From the NCBI RefSeq assembly GCF_058153355.1, contig NZ_CM177019.1: a DNA stretch of 64,000 nucleotides. One strand, given 5' to 3'. The translations under genes and the position numbers were made by a program. The notes under the pieces were generated by a model. It was given only the letters and a program-made list of their open reading frames with translations, did no database searches and was not told where the DNA came from. This document shows, one piece after another, positions 3,316 through 43,128 of the stretch. The stretch's first letter is position 1. Every line of letters begins with the position of its first letter.

Positions 3316-4368
3316 CTAAACCGGCGCGCCAGTGCGTAACTGCTGTAACAAACGCTCCACGGGAGCCGCCAGGCCAACTGACGGCGGTTGCGCTAAGTTA
3401 TACCAGAGCGCATTGCCTTCATCCATGCAGCCGGTGAATGACGACACGGGAAGCCACATAGGCACAATATCTAAGTGGAAATGGCTGAAGGTATGCCGAA
3501 ACGCGGTCAGTTGCGTCAGGTTATCGGCAGAAATCTGCCGTTGCGCCAGCCACTGCCGCAAACTTTCTTCATCGGCAAACTGCGGGAAACAGTATAAACC
3601 GCCCCACAATCCGCTCGGCGGACGCTGCGCCAGCAATACTTCATCTTCGTGCTGTAACAGCAAAAAGTAGCCGGTGCGCTCCGGTAGCGTCTGTTTCGGT
3701 TTTTTGCCCGGATAAAGCGACCAGCTATTGTTGGCGGCGGCAATACATCCGTTTTGTAGCGGACAGAGCGAACATTTCGGCTTAGAGCGCGTACAAATCA
3801 TCGCGCCCAAATCCATCATCGCCTGGTTAAACCGTTCCACGCCAACCGCGGGCGTCACCTGCTCGCTTAAACTCCATAGTTTGTTCTCGACCTCTTTTTT
3901 CCCAGGCCAGCCGTTTACAGCATAGCAGCGCGCCAGCACCCGTTTGACGTTACCGTCGAGAATCGGAAAGTGCTTACCCAGAGAAAGCGAGAGAATCGCG
4001 CCTGCGGTGGAACGCCCGACGCCCGGTAACGCGGCAACCTCATCAAAGGTTTCCGGGAATTTACCGCCGTGTAAGGTGGCAACTTGCTGTGCCGCTTTAT
4101 GTAGATTGCGCGCGCGGGCGTAATAGCCCAGTCCGGTCCACAAGTGGAGAATTTCGTCCAGCGGCGCATTGGCGAGATCGGTCACCGTTGGGAAGCGCGC
4201 CATAAAGCGTTCAAAATAGGGGATAACGGTCGCAACCTGAGTTTGTTGCAACATCACTTCTGAGAGCCATACTTTGTAGGGCGTCTTGTCAATTTGCCAG
4301 GGCAGCGTTTTCCGCCCGTATTTATCGTACCAGTCCAGAACCTGGGCTGAAAATTGCGACGCTTGCAT
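3316..4368 (-). CDS. mutY: Adenine DNA glycosylase MutY
   Basis: 350 aa from [25 protein letters not shown]; 4Fe-4S Cys cluster present. Confidence 0.9.
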
Positions 4369-4528
4369 GGTCACCGAATTCACTGTTGTTGGGGGCAAGA
4401 TTGCAGCACAGCGACGGCAGGGTGTAAACCGGAACTTTCCGCAGCCACGGCCTTATCATGCTTGCATCCGGCAACTAACTTTGGATAATGCCCGTTTTCA
4501 GAACACTTTCACAAGCGACTAAATCTTT

Positions 4529-5248
4529 ATGAAAAACGACGTCATCTCACCGGAATTTGATGAAAACGGCCGCCCACTGCGCCGTATCCGTAGTTTTGTG
4601 CGCCGCCAGGGGCGACTGACCAAAGGCCAGGAACATGCGCTGGAAAACTACTGGCCGGTGATGGGCGTTGAGTTCAGCGAAGATATGCTGGATTTCCCTG
4701 CGCTTTTTGGCCGTGAAGCGCCAGTGACGCTTGAGATTGGTTTCGGCATGGGGGCGTCGCTGGTGGCAATGGCTAAAGATCGCCCTGAGCAGGACTTCCT
4801 CGGCATTGAAGTGCATTCACCAGGCGTTGGTGCGTGCCTGTCTTCTGCGCATGAAGAGGGCTTAAGCAACCTGCGCGTGATGTGTCACGATGCGGTTGAA
4901 GTGCTACACAAAATGATTCCTGACAATTCATTGCGCATGGTACAGCTCTTTTTCCCTGACCCGTGGCACAAAGCGCGCCATAATAAACGCCGTATCGTTC
5001 AGGTGCCGTTTGCCGAACTGGTAAAAAGCAAACTGCAACTGGGGGGCGTATTCCATATGGCGACCGACTGGGAACCTTATGCGGAACATATGCTTGAAGT
5101 GATGTCTTCGATTGACGGTTATAAAAACCTGTCAGAGAGCAATGATTACGTACCGCGCCCGGCATCACGTCCGGTGACGAAATTTGAACAACGTGGTCAT
5201 CGTCTTGGTCACGGAGTATGGGACTTAATGTTCGAGAGGGTGAAATAA
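4529..5248 (+). CDS. trmB: tRNA (guanine46-N7)-methyltransferase
   Basis: 239 aa [31 protein letters not shown]... Confidence 0.9.
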
Positions 5249-13238: not shown

Positions 13239-14468
<1,230 letters not shown>

Positions 14469-14498
14469 CATGCCTGCAATCTGGGAAACCGGGGTAGA

Positions 14499-14529
<31 letters not shown>

Positions 14530-27467: not shown

Positions 27468-27744
27468 GTTTTCTCTTCCGCACAAGGTCAGGATTATTCT
27501 AAAAATGCACCGTTTGCAGGTGAATCGATGCTCAGTCTCAGTATAAGGAAAAGCGCAGCGGACGGGCGAGCAGATTGCGCAACATGCGAGCATGATCCAG
27601 AGATTTCTGAAGCGGCAAAAGGATGTTCCATGTACATGACGCGCGGCTTGCGGTAAATTGTTGGCAAATTTTCCGGCGTAGCCCAAAACGCGCTGTCGTC
27701 AAGTCGTTAAGGGCGTGCCCTTCATCATCCGATCTGGAGTCAAA

Positions 27745-29736
27745 ATGTCCTCACGTAAAGAGCTTGCCAATGCTATTCGTGCGCTGAGCATGGACGCAGT
27801 ACAGAAAGCCAAATCCGGTCACCCGGGTGCCCCTATGGGTATGGCTGACATTGCCGAAGTCCTGTGGCGTGATTTCCTGAAACACAACCCGCAGAATCCG
27901 TCCTGGGCTGACCGTGACCGCTTCGTGCTGTCCAACGGCCACGGCTCCATGCTGATCTACAGCCTGCTGCACCTCACCGGTTACGATCTGCCGATGGAAG
28001 AACTGAAAAACTTCCGTCAACTGCATTCCAAAACTCCGGGCCACCCGGAAGTGGGTTACACCGCTGGTGTGGAAACCACTACAGGTCCGCTGGGTCAGGG
28101 TATTGCCAATGCAGTCGGTATGGCGATTGCAGAAAAAACGCTGGCGGCGCAGTTTAACCGTCCGGGCCACGACATCGTCGACCACTACACCTACGCCTTC
28201 ATGGGCGACGGCTGCATGATGGAAGGCATCTCCCATGAAGTTTGCTCTCTGGCGGGTACGCTGAAGCTGGGTAAACTGATTGCGTTCTACGATGACAACG
28301 GTATCTCTATCGATGGTCACGTTGAAGGCTGGTTCACCGACGACACCGCAATGCGTTTCGAAGCTTACGGCTGGCACGTTATTCGCGGCATTGACGGTCA
28401 TGACGCGGCATCCATCAAACGCGCTGTAGAAGAAGCGCGCGCTGTGACTGACAAACCGTCTCTGCTGATGTGCAAAACCATCATTGGTTTCGGTTCTCCG
28501 AATAAAGCCGGTACTCACGACTCCCACGGTGCGCCGCTGGGCGACGCTGAAATTGCCCTGACCCGCGAACAGCTGGGCTGGAAATATGCACCGTTCGAAA
28601 TCCCGTCTGAAATCTATGCTCAGTGGGATGCGAAAGAAGCAGGCCAGGCGAAAGAATCCGCATGGAACGAGAAATTCGCTGCTTACGCCAAAGCTTATCC
28701 GCAGGAAGCCGCTGAATTTACCCGCCGTATGAAAGGCGAAATGCCGTCTGACTTCGATGCCAAAGCGAAAGAATTCATCGCTAAACTGCAGGCTAATCCG
28801 GCGAAAATCGCCAGCCGTAAAGCGTCTCAGAATGCGATTGAAGCGTTCGGCCCGCTGTTGCCGGAATTCCTCGGCGGCTCTGCTGACCTGGCACCGTCTA
28901 ACCTGACCCTGTGGTCTGGTTCTAAAGCAATCAACGAAGATGCTGCGGGTAACTACATCCACTACGGTGTTCGCGAGTTCGGTATGACCGCGATTGCTAA
29001 CGGTATCTCCCTGCACGGTGGCTTCCTGCCGTACACCTCCACCTTCCTGATGTTCGTGGAATACGCACGTAACGCCGTACGTATGGCTGCGCTGATGAAA
29101 CAGCGTCAGGTGATGGTTTACACCCACGACTCCATCGGTCTGGGCGAAGATGGCCCGACTCACCAGCCGGTAGAGCAGGTCGCTTCTCTGCGCGTGACCC
29201 CGAACATGTCTACATGGCGTCCGTGTGACCAGGTTGAATCTGCAGTAGCGTGGAAATACGGCGTTGAGCGTCAGGACGGCCCGACTGCGCTTATCCTCTC
29301 CCGTCAGAACCTGGCGCAGCAGGAACGTACTGAAGAGCAGCTGGCAAACATCGCGCGCGGTGGTTATGTGCTGAAAGACTGTGCCGGTCAGCCGGAACTG
29401 ATCTTCATCGCTACCGGTTCTGAAGTTGAACTGGCGGTTGCTGCCTACGAAAAACTGACTGCTGAAGGCGTGAAAGCGCGCGTGGTTTCCATGCCGTCTA
29501 CCGACGCATTCGACAAGCAGGATGCGGCTTACCGTGAGTCTGTACTGCCGAAAGCGGTTACTGCACGCGTTGCGGTGGAAGCTGGCATTGCTGACTACTG
29601 GTACAAGTATGTTGGCCTGAACGGTGCTATCGTCGGCATGACCACCTTCGGTGAATCTGCTCCGGCAGAGCTGCTGTTTGAAGAGTTCGGCTTCACCGTT
29701 GACAACGTTGTTGCGAAAGCAAAAGAACTGCTGTAA
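27745..29736 (+). CDS. tktA: Transketolase 1
   Basis: 663 aa from [32 protein letters not shown]. Confidence 0.95.
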
Positions 29737-29759
29737 TCGGTAAGATGCTTTGTGAGAAG

Positions 29760-29777
29760 GGCCGCGAAAGCGGCCCT
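29760..29777 (+). terminator. Hairpin downstream of tktA (putative terminator stem); a second copy lies at 31213..31230
   Basis: gggccgcgaaagcggccc perfect stem-loop; weak T tract. Confidence 0.45.
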
Positions 29778-29805
29778 TCAGATTATTGGCAAAGTGCGCG
29801 TTGTT

Positions 29806-29907
<102 letters not shown>

Positions 29908-29937
29908 TCTACCCCGGTTTCCCAGATTGCAGGCATG

Positions 29938-31187
<1,250 letters not shown>

Positions 31188-31234
31188 GTTTTGCCTTTGC
31201 CATCAGTCTCAAGGGCCGCGAAAGCGGCCCTTTT

Positions 31235-32143
31235 TTACTTAGTAGAGATAAACGGAACTGTACTGCCGGGGATCATGGTATCGGGTAGCTTACCGTCCCA
31301 ACGCTCAGCAGTGGTGAGGGCAACAAGTCCGGGATTATCCCGCAGAGCTTCACCGCGCAGGCGGATCGCTTCTGCTTCAGCCGCACTTTTTAAACGAATA
31401 GTTTCAGCCTCTGCCGCGCCTCTTACGCGAATAGTCTCAGCTTCTGCTTTGGCTGCCGCTAGTTTACTGTCTGCTTCTGCCTGGGCCTGAATTACCGCTA
31501 TTTGCGCCTGGATTTTCTCTGTTTCCAGATTTTGCTTACGTGTGGCAATGGCGACTTCTGCTTTCATTCGATCTTCAATCGATTTTTCATAAGCGTCAGA
31601 AAAATCAATATTTTCAATCTGGACACCATCAATCACCACCGGGCCAACAACGGCTTTACGCATTGCATTTTGCAGATCCTGAACCAGTTTTGTACGATCC
31701 TGTACCGCGCTGATGGCGGTATATTGGCCGAAAACGTTCTCCAGTTGAGTTGGCAATTGACGGACAATCAGACGATCTTTTAATGCTTCAATGGTGTTGT
31801 AAGTGGTATAAACCGCGCCTGCTTCTGAAGGTTTAATGTGGAAGCTGACTGATACTGTCATTTGTGCCGGTTGCTGGTCGCGGCTGTAGGCCTGTAATCC
31901 CTGATAAACCACAGCCTGATTACGCGTGGAAATTTTCTCTACGCTTTCCATAAATGGGATCTTAAAACCCAGACCCGGCTCGGCAACTTTTACGATTTTT
32001 CCGTAGCGCAGCAAAATGCCGCGTTCACCTTCATTAACGGTGTAATACGAGAGAAATGGCAGCACAACCACGGTAAGCACGCCAATGGCGATAGCAATAG
32101 ATTTTTGTGGGCGAAATGAGGTTATTGAAACAGGTGCTTTCAT
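31235..32143 (-). CDS. SPFH/band-7 (prohibitin/flotillin-like) membrane protein with repetitive Ala/Glu-rich C-terminus; not at this position in K-12 as far as I recall
   Basis: 302 aa; N-terminal TM IAIAIGVLTVVVLPFLSYY; SPFH-like core; AAEAETIRxR tandem repeats; RBS aaggaag. Confidence 0.7.
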   Translation of the reverse strand: MKAPVSITSFRPQKSIAIAIGVLTVVVLPFLSYYTVNEGERGILLRYGKIVKVAEPGLGFKIPFMESVEKISTRNQAVVYQGLQAYSRDQQPAQMTVSVSFHIKPSEAGAVYTTYNTIEALKDRLIVRQLPTQLENVFGQYTAISAVQDRTKLVQDLQNAMRKAVVGPVVIDGVQIENIDFSDAYEKSIEDRMKAEVAIATRKQNLETEKIQAQIAVIQAQAEADSKLAAAKAEAETIRVRGAAEAETIRLKSAAEAEAIRLRGEALRDNPGLVALTTAERWDGKLPDTMIPGSTVPFISTK

Positions 32144-32517
32144 GAGAATCTTCCTTGAGTAAAGTGTGGGAATATGTCACATGAGGTGAGGAGAAAACAG
32201 CCAACAGGTGAGAATTCAGAATCTATAAAGGGGGAGAGCGAAAAACATCGGCTAAAAAAGTATGTTTTCGAACATTCAATAGATAAATAGAGATATGCAT
32301 CACAAATACATAGGCAGATAAAACATTGGTTTTGTGATAAACATAACAAACACAAACTTGACTTTATAAGTATAAATTTCATGTTGTTGTTATTTAACAT
32401 TTTATTATTTTGGTTCATGTTTTTTTTCTTCTCGCGTGCCAATTGCTTTCATTAAATCGCACGAGTATTTTATTTTTACCGCCGGACGGTACCCTAAAAA
32501 TAAAATAAGGATAATTT

Positions 32518-32961
32518 ATGCGGCTTATTGATTATTTTCCAGAATCATCAATCTCAGTTATACATTCAGCAAAAGACTGGCAGGAAGTTATCGATTTTTC
32601 GATGGCATCATTGCTGGATAAAAACTATATCAGTGAGAATTACATTCAGGCTATTAAAGATTCCACCATTAACAATGGCCCTTATTATATTCTCGCACCA
32701 GGCGTGGCAATGCCTCATGCGCGACCGGAATGTGGGGCGCTTAAAACCGGGATGTCTTTGACGTTACTTAAACAAGGCGTTTATTTTCCGGGGAATGACG
32801 AACCGATTAAATTACTTATCGGTCTTTCTGCTGCCGATGCCGATTCGCACATTGGCGCTATTCAGGCGTTAAGTGAATTGCTGTGCGAAGAAGAAATACT
32901 TGAACAACTCTTAACTGCAACATCAGAAAAACAATTAGCGGACATTATCAGCCGCGAATAA
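32518..32961 (+). CDS. cmtB: Cryptic mannitol-type PTS EIIA component
   Basis: 147 aa MRLIDYFPESSISVIHSAKDWQEVIDFS. Confidence 0.85.
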   Translation: MRLIDYFPESSISVIHSAKDWQEVIDFSMASLLDKNYISENYIQAIKDSTINNGPYYILAPGVAMPHARPECGALKTGMSLTLLKQGVYFPGNDEPIKLLIGLSAADADSHIGAIQALSELLCEEEILEQLLTATSEKQLADIISRE

Positions 32962-41746: not shown

Positions 41747-42996
<1,250 letters not shown>

Positions 42997-43026
42997 CATG
43001 CCTGCAATCTGGGAAACCGGGGTAGA

Positions 43027-43128
<102 letters not shown>

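Follow-up and report, generated by a model that had tools for sequence, protein, structure and literature searches.

In the literature on SPFH proteins and membrane microdomains, the SPFH proteins of Escherichia coli number four (HflK, HflC, QmcA, and YqiK), because that work uses K-12 (PMC10434171 and PMC6788730). The genes for QmcA and YqiK are paired with NfeD genes and their products face the cytoplasm; HflC has been placed facing the periplasm (PMC2636767). The 2009 survey by Hinderhofer et al. (PMC2636767), whose definition of the SPFH4 or "p-prohibitin" class is used here, noted that no bacterial member of this class had been studied and that genomes with both SPFH4 and HflK/C are rare. 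Literature searches found no studied bacterial member of the prohibitin class since that survey, no study in E. coli of the gene described below, and no experiment on a close homologue. As for stand-alone SPFH genes in gamma-proteobacteria, the searches returned only the work on Pseudomonas aeruginosa PA14, where such genes gave no strong phenotypes (PMC13086221).

The gene described here (the SPFH gene) would add a fifth SPFH protein, probably of the bacterial prohibitin class, to the E. coli set; it is found in 1,830 of 5,426 complete E. coli genomes (34%). It was analyzed in a 64,000-nucleotide stretch of contig NZ_CM177019.1 (assembly GCF_058153355.1), referred to as the window, where its coding sequence occupies positions 31235..32143 of the minus strand, stop codon included. 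The assignment draws on the open reading frame list, Pfam, the RefSeq name, and dN/dS. The initial annotation, made from the sequence alone, proposed a 302-aa minus-strand SPFH/band-7 membrane protein, and this holds: the open reading frame is present, with a single transmembrane (TM) helix and a Pfam Band_7 match (PF01145) to residues 35 to 210 with an E value of 9.3e-32, covering model positions 2 to 176 of 176. In the closest genome, the RefSeq entry of this gene (WP_000646925.1) already carries the name "prohibitin family protein." The protein is an uncharacterised member of a known SPFH/prohibitin kind for which an annotation pre-exists.

The SPFH gene lies between tktA (27715..29736) and cmtB (32518..32961). 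Both flanking genes had been named correctly, but a 1,287-bp IS621 copy also intervenes on the tktA side (29873..31159, minus strand; transposase at 29987..30967), inserted into a REP element. IS621 is present in three identical copies within the window and is missing from strain GmF052, whose SPFH locus is otherwise the same; it is an independent later insertion and lies outside the SPFH locus in most strains. At an E value of ≤1, the only Rfam matches are to the REP-associated ES036/naRNA4 families, near IS621. The SPFH gene is monocistronic, with no NfeD gene and no second SPFH gene beside it.

From its N terminus, the predicted protein comprises a TM helix and an SPFH domain, then a helix of 87 residues with an underlying 11-residue repeat, and finally a tail with a W-G-x-LP...PF pattern. 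The TM helix (residues 15 to 33; 32045..32101, minus strand) has a 19-residue Kyte-Doolittle mean of 2.24 and is the sole segment of the protein above 1.6; the AF2 monomer model (mean pLDDT of 91.4) places it at residues 12 to 31. The SPFH/Band_7 domain (31514..32041, minus strand) is supported by Pfam and Foldseek and by pLDDT values of 95 to 98, and spans residues 33 to 181 in the model. It is followed by one continuous α-helix, residues 183 to 269 (31337..31597, minus strand), seen in the AF2 secondary structure and alignable to the helices of HflC and prohibitins; it corresponds to the coiled-coil "wall" segment of SPFH cages. Membrane anchor and helical region thus both agree with those of the SPFH/Band 7 superfamily. 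Foldseek searches with the AF2 model show that all top matches are cage-forming SPFH chains, led by HflC (4.8e-17) and PHB1/2 (about 2e-15), with HflK, erlin, and QmcA among the further matches. The C-terminal tail, NPGLVALTTAERWDGKLPDTMIPGSTVPFISTK (residues 270 to 302; 31238..31336, minus strand), is conserved among 96 homologues, which show little or no variation at W282, G284, P287, P292, and P297. Its pLDDT in the monomer model is low, as might be expected of a segment that folds only in the oligomer.

The residues that precede the TM helix include three basic ones (K2, R11, and K14) and no acidic ones, and the N-terminal side of this helix is the more positive one in 83 of 95 homologues. 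This pattern predicts an N-in/C-out protein with its bulk in the periplasm. The transition from the TM helix to the first β-strand, which is much like that of the periplasm-facing HflC (PMC2636767), points the same way.

Searches with a family profile built from 96 sequences (profile A3) retrieve prohibitin chains first, with E values from 2.7e-29 to 1.6e-25 and nearly full-length alignments (profile positions 12 to 260), followed by HflC (2e-23), HflK (3e-20), QmcA (3e-17), and stomatin (4e-13); erlin and flotillin also score lower. A single-sequence search of PDB, unlike the profile search, places HflC first (3e-13). HflC shares with the SPFH protein a very similar junction between the TM helix and β1, and the HflK/HflC cages (7VHP and 7WI3) have an Ala/Glu-rich helix and the same predicted type II topology. 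However, the SPFH protein lacks the HflC insertion between the SPFH domain and the helix, its C-terminal tail is different, and its gene is a single one rather than part of an hflK-hflC pair. Orthology with either protein was rejected, as NCBIfam scores of 60.4 bits for HflC and 36.5 bits for HflK fall far below the respective equivalog cutoffs of 134.4 and 159.4. The mitochondrial prohibitins PHB1 and PHB2, taken together with the bacterial SPFH4 class, are the best profile match and have the same order of parts, an N-terminal anchor, SPFH domain, long helix, and C-terminal tail; they likewise have no NfeD partner and a bulk that is predicted to be noncytoplasmic. The identity to PHB chains is about 16 to 20%, and PHB1/PHB2 is a heteromer, whereas the single gene seen here presumably encodes a homo-oligomer. 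We consider it probable that this is a bacterial prohibitin-type protein of the SPFH4 class, encoded by an old chromosomal resident next to tkt and forming a periplasmic homo-oligomeric cage.

The SPFH protein also resembles QmcA (YbbK)-YbbJ and YqiK in its fold and cage-type architecture, and QmcA is matched significantly both by sequence and by structure (8Z5G). It might therefore be a cytoplasm-facing scaffold of the stomatin/QmcA type and cooperate with an NfeD protein from another locus (ybbJ or yqiJ), in line with the speculation that SPFH proteins whose genes have no adjacent NfeD gene might borrow one (PMC2636767). This reading is quite unlikely: the similarity is weaker, with prohibitin, HflC, and HflK profile scores all exceeding those of QmcA and stomatin, the positive-inside pattern predicts the opposite orientation, and an NfeD gene is adjacent in none of 80 loci. 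The lower ranking of QmcA, stomatin, and flotillin and the lack of an NfeD neighbor were also the grounds for setting aside assignment to the QmcA (SPFH1) or flotillin-like YqiK (SPFH2) groups; the NCBIfam FloT model gives 17 bits against a cutoff of 700.

In a prohibitin-type arrangement, many copies of the SPFH protein, side by side, would build a closed homo-oligomeric cage that covers the inner membrane from the periplasmic side, with the long helices as its wall and the C-terminal tails as its cap, as in the FtsH modulators HflK/C and in mitochondrial PHB1/2. Such a cage would separate an area of membrane, together with the proteins inside it, from its surroundings. By analogy with these systems, the most likely client would be the FtsH protease. 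In 10 Pseudomonas loci, the orthologue is divergently oriented beside a gene for a YccA-like "FtsH protease modulator"; this hints, if weakly, at a link with FtsH, but the arrangement is limited to Pseudomonas species that are close relatives and may reflect no more than synteny. Neighbor clustering across the 80 loci revealed no neighbor family common beyond one genus-level group (12 loci at most). E. coli normally has hflKC, which lies outside the window. In this respect the SPFH gene differs from SPFH4 genes generally, whose coexistence with HflK/C is described as rare (PMC2636767), so that there is no obvious reason to expect it to be simply redundant with HflK/C. It is conceivable, if on balance doubtful, that the periplasm-facing prohibitin cage acts alongside HflK/C or competes with it for FtsH and that the phage homologues described below tap the same machinery. 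The carrier lineages would then differ in the quality control of membrane proteins, in aminoglycoside tolerance, or in phage lysogeny. The SPFH gene would be a convenient and genetically tractable system in which to study a prohibitin cage made from one gene.

The repetitive coiled-coil tail noticed in the initial annotation is borne out as a set of 11-aa units within the C-terminal helix. Periodicity, shuffles, and homologue gaps delineate four hendecads of 33 nt each (residues 219 to 262; 31358..31489, minus strand), of which three are clear (AAKAEAETIRV, RGAAEAETIRL, and KSAAEAEAIRL; residues 230 to 262, 31358..31456) and the fourth is degenerate (residues 219 to 229, 31457..31489). At a lag of 33, nucleotide identity over 99 nt is 0.64, a value reached by none of 1,000 codon shuffles, and a repeat search also returns a 33-nt spacing in the SPFH gene. 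The imperfect 33-bp repeats seen initially therefore correspond to a real periodicity but are located at 31358..31489 rather than at 31320..31480. Tandem Repeats Finder (TRF), even at its lowest score threshold, reports no period-33 array in the SPFH gene, because the nucleotide identity between units is only 52 to 70%.

Such repeats raise the question of a contingency-type locus, in which the 33-bp units, by slippage or by unequal crossing-over, would alter the length of the coiled coil between strains. The 33-nt periodicity is genuine, and clear hendecads number three in Escherichia and two in other genera, the middle unit (residues 241 to 251) being an Escherichia-specific extra copy opposite an 11-aa gap in all non-Escherichia homologues. 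In addition, one E. albertii cluster (P0013) is shorter by exactly 22 aa, in register, and another cluster (P0015) lacks 11 aa and carries a frameshift. However, in a 60-genome spread sample of E. coli, all 59 full-length matches have a gene of 909 bp, and the three-unit block has the same protein sequence across Escherichia species despite dS values of up to 0.77. The hendecad block also contains no long perfect DNA repeat and, as noted, gives no TRF array. With its units diverged and its copy number uniform in this sample, a repeat-variable locus was rejected and is extremely unlikely. The expected variation in repeat number was thus absent across strains and present between genera and in the E. 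albertii cluster P0013. On the sequence evidence, the 33-nt repeats are old. We infer that the extra hendecad is a fixed genus-level feature rather than a variable switch; it would add three helical turns (about 16 Å) in register and make the cage wall taller with the helix packing unchanged. The natural two-unit and three-unit variants provide a built-in test of whether helix length sets cage size.

The SPFH family is frequent on phages and on plasmids, conjugative ones included. The E. coli protein matches PHROG 200 with an E value of 1e-62, and a separate PHROG covers its C-terminal tail. Full-length homologues are found in jumbo phages (about 50% identity), Skarpretter (45%), and N4 and Stx2a phages. 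These phage proteins (PHROG 200; the GAP32-like jumbo phages, Skarpretter, and BCI50276 of an Stx2a phage) belong to the same family and have the same tail as the E. coli protein, but they are encoded in early or accessory regions of the phage genomes. HflK and HflC were discovered through lambda lysogeny. These facts would fit a phage-related function, such as superinfection exclusion, lysogeny control, or anti-phage defence, which the gene would have retained or taken over from phage SPFH genes. Such a function is nevertheless very unlikely, given that the gene has housekeeping genes and no prophage genes around it, that synteny of the chromosomal lineage extends across genera, and that identity to the phage homologues is at most 51%. 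A PADLOC search with the SPFH protein gave no families at an E value of ≤1, and a known anti-phage defence system was dropped as a candidate.

The accessory status of the SPFH gene, proposed initially together with its absence from K-12, agrees with its variable presence among E. coli strains: the tktA-cmtB interval of K-12 MG1655 contains no gene, and the SPFH gene is missing from about 66% of the complete E. coli genomes. The carriers include well-known extraintestinal pathogenic strains; the B2 reference strains EC958, 536, and NC101 are among them. The further suggestion of horizontal acquisition fared less well. It would make the SPFH gene and the adjoining AT-rich DNA an H-NS-silenced accessory islet, which some strains would have gained in the tktA-cmtB interval. 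Besides the patchy presence in E. coli, this is favored by the occurrence of the family on conjugative plasmids and in phages, a 71%-identical paralogue inside a mobile element of Klebsiella oxytoca, and the IS621 copy that adjoins the gene. Codon usage points both ways: with a GC3 of 0.43, the SPFH gene was reported as the lowest of 53 open reading frames in the window (mean of 0.56), but cmtB, which is present in all strains, is lower still at 0.37, and the SPFH orthologues also have low GC3.

However, the gene adjoins tkt, in convergent orientation, in E. albertii, E. whittamii, and another Escherichia species, as well as in Kluyvera intermedia and Pseudocitrobacter (82% and 85% amino acid identity, respectively), so that four Escherichia species and two other genera share this position. 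Its divergence tracks that of the flanking genes: dS relative to E. albertii is 0.77 for the SPFH gene and 0.44 to 0.58 for loiP, cmtA, and cmtB. The dN/dS ratios of 0.013 to 0.079 indicate strong purifying selection on the SPFH gene. No integrase, tRNA, or direct repeat bounds the locus, and IS621 is independent of it, being absent from the same locus in GmF052. A horizontally acquired islet was accordingly rejected as a description of a site that is occupied in E. albertii, E. whittamii, Kluyvera, and Pseudocitrobacter and that received IS621 later, and we regard it as unlikely. The gene-less E. coli among the genomes listed all share one right junction, at window position 32437. Taken together, the tkt synteny across genera, the flank-like divergence, and the purifying selection suggest that the K-12 state is most likely the loss of an old resident gene. 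The low GC3 and the frequent plasmid and phage homologues leave room for an earlier event, and the gene may have entered Enterobacteriaceae by an ancient transfer. Otherwise, the locus is ordinary: its membrane gene is conserved and of a housekeeping type, and one branch of E. coli would have lost it.

The noncoding stretch upstream of the SPFH gene (32144..32517, 374 bp) is AT rich, as first described, with 32% GC compared to 51.5% for the whole window. Its interpretation as foreign DNA is contradicted by the alignment, in which the segment from about 32264 onward matches the AT-rich cmtB spacer of K-12 itself. Specifically, the K-12 cmtB spacer and the tract at 32264..32517 are 64% identical over 151 nt and then about 95% identical from 32437. 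The alignment makes the cmtB-proximal two-thirds of the tract orthologous to the cmtB upstream region of K-12, and it is therefore not island DNA. Judging from this comparison, most of the AT-rich DNA serves as control region for the divergently oriented cmtBA operon. The part at 32264..32517 (plus strand), common to strains with and without the SPFH gene, contains putative CRP sites at 32289-32304 and 32333-32348, both within conserved blocks of the cmtB spacer. Across the whole window, the CRP pattern occurs 32 times against 25.9 expected, which is not above chance; the two putative spacer sites are instead suggested by their conservation and by the reported CRP activation of the K-12 cmtB promoter (PMC3105977). 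Rfam searches at an E value of ≤1 found nothing within the AT-rich tract.

The remaining part of the tract, 32144..32263 (minus strand), is the 5' leader or upstream region specific to carriers; it is highly similar in the Escherichia strains that carry the gene, and K-12 lacks it. A sigma-70 scan of positions 29700-32600 found no promoter-like site and no consensus match. A Shine-Dalgarno sequence, AAGGAAG, is located 6 nt before the ATG of the SPFH gene. At the other end of the gene, a terminator scan detects a GC-rich hairpin followed by a T run (31211..31236), terminator-like on the plus strand, in the tktA direction. This hairpin overlaps the SPFH stop codon, directly downstream of the gene on the minus strand, and its 22-nt stem-loop has a second copy at 29757-29778.

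The 302-codon ORF at 31235..32143 (minus strand) is a real gene, already present in annotation pipelines under the RefSeq name "prohibitin family protein." It lies between tktA (27715..29736, plus strand) and cmtB (32518..32961, plus strand); in this strain, a 1,287-bp IS621 copy (29873..31159) sits within a REP element between tktA and the SPFH gene. The SPFH membrane protein with an N-terminal transmembrane (TM) helix described in the initial annotation is borne out by a full-length match to the Pfam Band_7/SPFH domain (aa 35-210, E 9.3e-32) and a sole strongly hydrophobic segment at aa 15-33. The AlphaFold2 model, built with 96 homologues as input, is confident (mean pLDDT 91.4) and predicts a TM helix (aa 12-31), a compact alpha/beta SPFH domain (aa 33-181), a single unbroken 87-residue helix (aa 183-269), and a short helix (aa 272-280) followed by an extended tail.

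This gene is found in 1,830 of 5,426 complete E. coli genomes, including EC958, 536, and NC101. It is absent from K-12 MG1655, where the initial annotation placed no such gene, and from a listed O157:H7 genome. Homology to K-12 runs out with the stop codon of tktA (29737) and restarts at 32437, a point common to every gene-less genome among those listed. The same site and orientation, convergent with tkt, are seen in E. albertii (95% aa identity), E. whittamii, and Escherichia sp. MOD1-EC7003, as well as in Kluyvera intermedia (82%) and Pseudocitrobacter (85%); on its other side, the Kluyvera gene has epd-pgk-fbaA in place of the cmt operon. Synonymous divergence from E. albertii (dS 0.77) is similar in magnitude to the values for loiP (0.53), cmtA (0.58), and cmtB (0.44); against Kluyvera it is saturated for the SPFH gene and loiP alike. 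The dN/dS ratio is 0.013 to 0.079 across all comparisons. The simplest reading is that the gene has long resided at this site and was lost by one E. coli branch, which includes K-12 and O157. Its gain by some E. coli strains as an islet, in line with the horizontal acquisition first proposed, is less likely, given the shared tkt-side position in these genera and the dS values comparable to those of the flanking genes. Some residual doubt comes from codon usage, since the GC3 of the gene (0.43) is the lowest of 53 window ORFs, although that of cmtB is lower still (0.37) and the SPFH orthologues are similarly low, and from the wider family, which is plainly mobile, with paralogues on plasmids and in a mobile element and homologues of about 50% identity in jumbo phages. 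It is an ordinary conserved membrane-scaffold gene, most likely lost from the K-12 lineage, and unsurprising as a finding.

The non-coding tract at 32144..32517 is indeed strongly AT-rich (32% GC versus 51.5% for the window), but its proposed foreign origin is not supported. The 230-bp tktA-cmtB spacer of K-12 aligns with 32264..32410 (64% identity, E 3e-8). A multi-species alignment reveals shared blocks, including TTTTCGnAC, TTCAATA, ATCACAAAT, TTTGTGAT, TTGAC, and ATTGTTAT, and almost complete identity from 32437 to the cmtB start. Pattern matching finds two CRP-like sites (32289-32304 and 32333-32348), both within shared blocks, and CRP reportedly activates the cmtB promoter of K-12 (PMC3105977). 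Because of these features, the tract is best read as mainly regulatory DNA of the divergent cmtBA operon, present also in gene-less strains. Only ~120 bp (32144..32263), highly conserved in Escherichia and containing a good Shine-Dalgarno sequence, is carrier specific. A promoter scan of the region did not locate the SPFH promoter, and the tract has no Rfam family match. H-NS may well bind DNA of this kind, but such binding would be no sign of foreign origin. The spacer also contains a palindrome, ATGTT-N4-AACAT (32262-32275), of which K-12 keeps only part; the blocks at 32262-32348 are conserved from E. albertii to K-12 with some substitutions. Between conserved blocks the spacer is unusually divergent: K-12 and this strain share 64% identity there, versus about 95 to 97% in the flanking genes. 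In one gene-less strain (L002, 4083-4499), cmtB is annotated as 138 aa versus 147 aa in K-12 and the carriers; a tblastn search still matches 146 residues, and this looks like an annotation difference with no real truncation.

The distal half of the long helix consists of 11-residue units, QAQAEADSKLA, AAKAEAETIRV, RGAAEAETIRL, and KSAAEAEAIRL (aa 219-262; 31358..31489). The imperfect ~33-bp repeats noted earlier are thus real: nucleotide identity at a lag of 33 peaks at 0.64 (99 nt), a value that none of 1,000 codon shuffles attains, and seeded repeat finding gives the same 33-nt spacing, although Tandem Repeats Finder reports no array in the gene. The units share 52 to 70% pairwise DNA identity and, judging from sequence, are old. 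Three clear units are found in all Escherichia sequences versus two in every other genus examined (Kluyvera, Pseudocitrobacter, Klebsiella, Kosakonia, Mixta, Erwinia, Salmonella, Pseudomonas, and others), a gap of exactly 11 residues. The suggested strain-to-strain variation is not seen: when 60 genomes are drawn from across the 1,830 matching E. coli genomes, the coding sequence is exactly 909 bp in 59 of 59 full-length matches. The repeat-block protein is identical in E. coli, E. whittamii, another Escherichia species, and E. albertii, with dS up to 0.77. The fixed number and identical block argue that the repeat belongs to the fixed architecture of the protein, with its length differing at the level of the genus, and is no variable tract. 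Rare exceptions are an E. albertii cluster (P0013) missing 22 aa in register and a seven-member cluster (P0015) with an 11-aa deletion plus a frameshift. Elsewhere, one Shigella flexneri sequence (P0004) gains 7 aa by duplication of QQPATSN, and the E. albertii type strain (P0006) gains 3 aa (QGL).

Single-sequence searches give HflC (3e-13), HflK, QmcA, prohibitin, and stomatin as the best solved relatives. A profile of 96 homologues ranks prohibitins first, almost end to end (2.7e-29, 1e-28, and 1.6e-25), followed by HflC (2e-23), HflK, QmcA, stomatin, erlin, and flotillin. The top Foldseek matches to the model are solely cage-forming SPFH chains. HflC and HflK equivalogs were rejected, with NCBIfam scores far under the cut-offs. 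Neither an NfeD gene nor a second SPFH gene adjoins this one, and neighbour clustering of 80 loci from many genera finds no conserved neighbour beyond genus-level synteny. In 83 of 95 homologues, the segment N-terminal to the TM helix is the more positive, favouring an N-in/C-out topology. The SPFH4 "p-prohibitin" class comprises single genes without an NfeD partner and with a predicted periplasmic orientation of the product; at the time of the survey, none of its bacterial members had been studied (Hinderhofer et al. 2009, PMC2636767). As a single gene without NfeD and with predicted N-in/C-out topology, the SPFH protein has features that fit this class. A literature search found no paper on this gene or any close homologue, leaving it an uncharacterised member of a known protein class. 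Studies of SPFH proteins in E. coli deal with the four of K-12. In Pseudomonas aeruginosa, a single survey of genes encoding stand-alone SPFH proteins reported slight phenotypes only (PMC13086221). As a tractable single-gene bacterial prohibitin, the gene is worth modest follow-up.

The solved HflK/C, PHB1/2, stomatin, erlin, and QmcA assemblies suggest, by analogy, that many copies would pack laterally, with the TM helices forming a ring within the inner membrane, the SPFH domains the base of a cage, the long helices its parallel wall, and the invariant W-G-x-LP...PF tails closing its top. Such a cage, on the periplasmic side, would wall in a patch of membrane. The extra 11 residues would add three turns of hendecad-type helix and make the wall ~16 Angstrom longer with the packing register unshifted, which would explain why indels in this stretch come in multiples of 11. 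The obvious client to propose is FtsH, since proteases of this type are held by HflK/C and by prohibitins alike. The sole hint of such a link in this analysis is a divergently adjacent YccA-like gene (NCBIfam "FtsH protease modulator YccA," E 1e-67, under the equivalog cut-off) at ten Pseudomonas loci (L041, L050, L051, L056, L061, L068, L069, L073, L074, and L089; about 3950-4700), which may be mere synteny of close relatives. In 12 loci, a sensor histidine kinase lies downstream.

IS621, an IS110 family element encoding a 326-aa transposase, is present in three 100% identical copies within 64 kb (13247-14529, 29873-31159, and 41775-43061). All three border a REP-like ...TATCAGGCCT sequence, in keeping with the preference for REP targets known for this element. 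At the tktA locus, the annotation of the closest complete genome gives the copy as frameshifted. A 22-nt GC-rich hairpin, AAGGGCCGCGAAAGCGGCCCTT, brackets the REP/IS621 segment, directly after tktA (29757-29778) and overlapping the SPFH stop codon (31211-31232), with a T-run following only the latter; a strain lacking IS621 has both hairpins too, with two substitutions in the first. An Rfam ES036 (CssrF) sRNA match (29843-29886), above the gathering threshold (40.4 versus 37.6 bits), spans the left IS621 junction (29872/29873) and is flanked by sub-threshold matches to the REP-derived naRNA4.

Paralogues with 67 to 71% identity are found on Enterobacter and Kosakonia plasmids (84 to 131 kb; H92-H103) and on a K. 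oxytoca mobile element (L010, CP136265.1), where the neighbours include ArdC/CbtA/N6-methylase, HNH, and TraF-like genes. Full-length homologues with 45 to 51% identity are encoded by jumbo myophages and one 42-kb E. coli phage (records H106-H123, including GAP32, Serratia phage BF, Erwinia pEa_SNUABM phages, Yersinia fHe-Yen9-04, and Escherichia phage Skarpretter); in the 42-kb phage, the gene lies amid replication and nucleotide-metabolism genes. In the Stx2a-converting phage Stx2_95, an early-region gene near int/xis labelled "serine protease" (L092 1871-2698, BCI50276) in fact encodes a Band_7/SPFH protein (Pfam 1.7e-30), and such a prophage gene is also found in phiP27 and P1-like records. 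The last 65 residues of BCI50276 share 50% identity with the E. coli SPFH protein over its C-terminal helix and tail, and a separate PHROG (38808, 68 aa) spans just the SPFH C-terminal tail.
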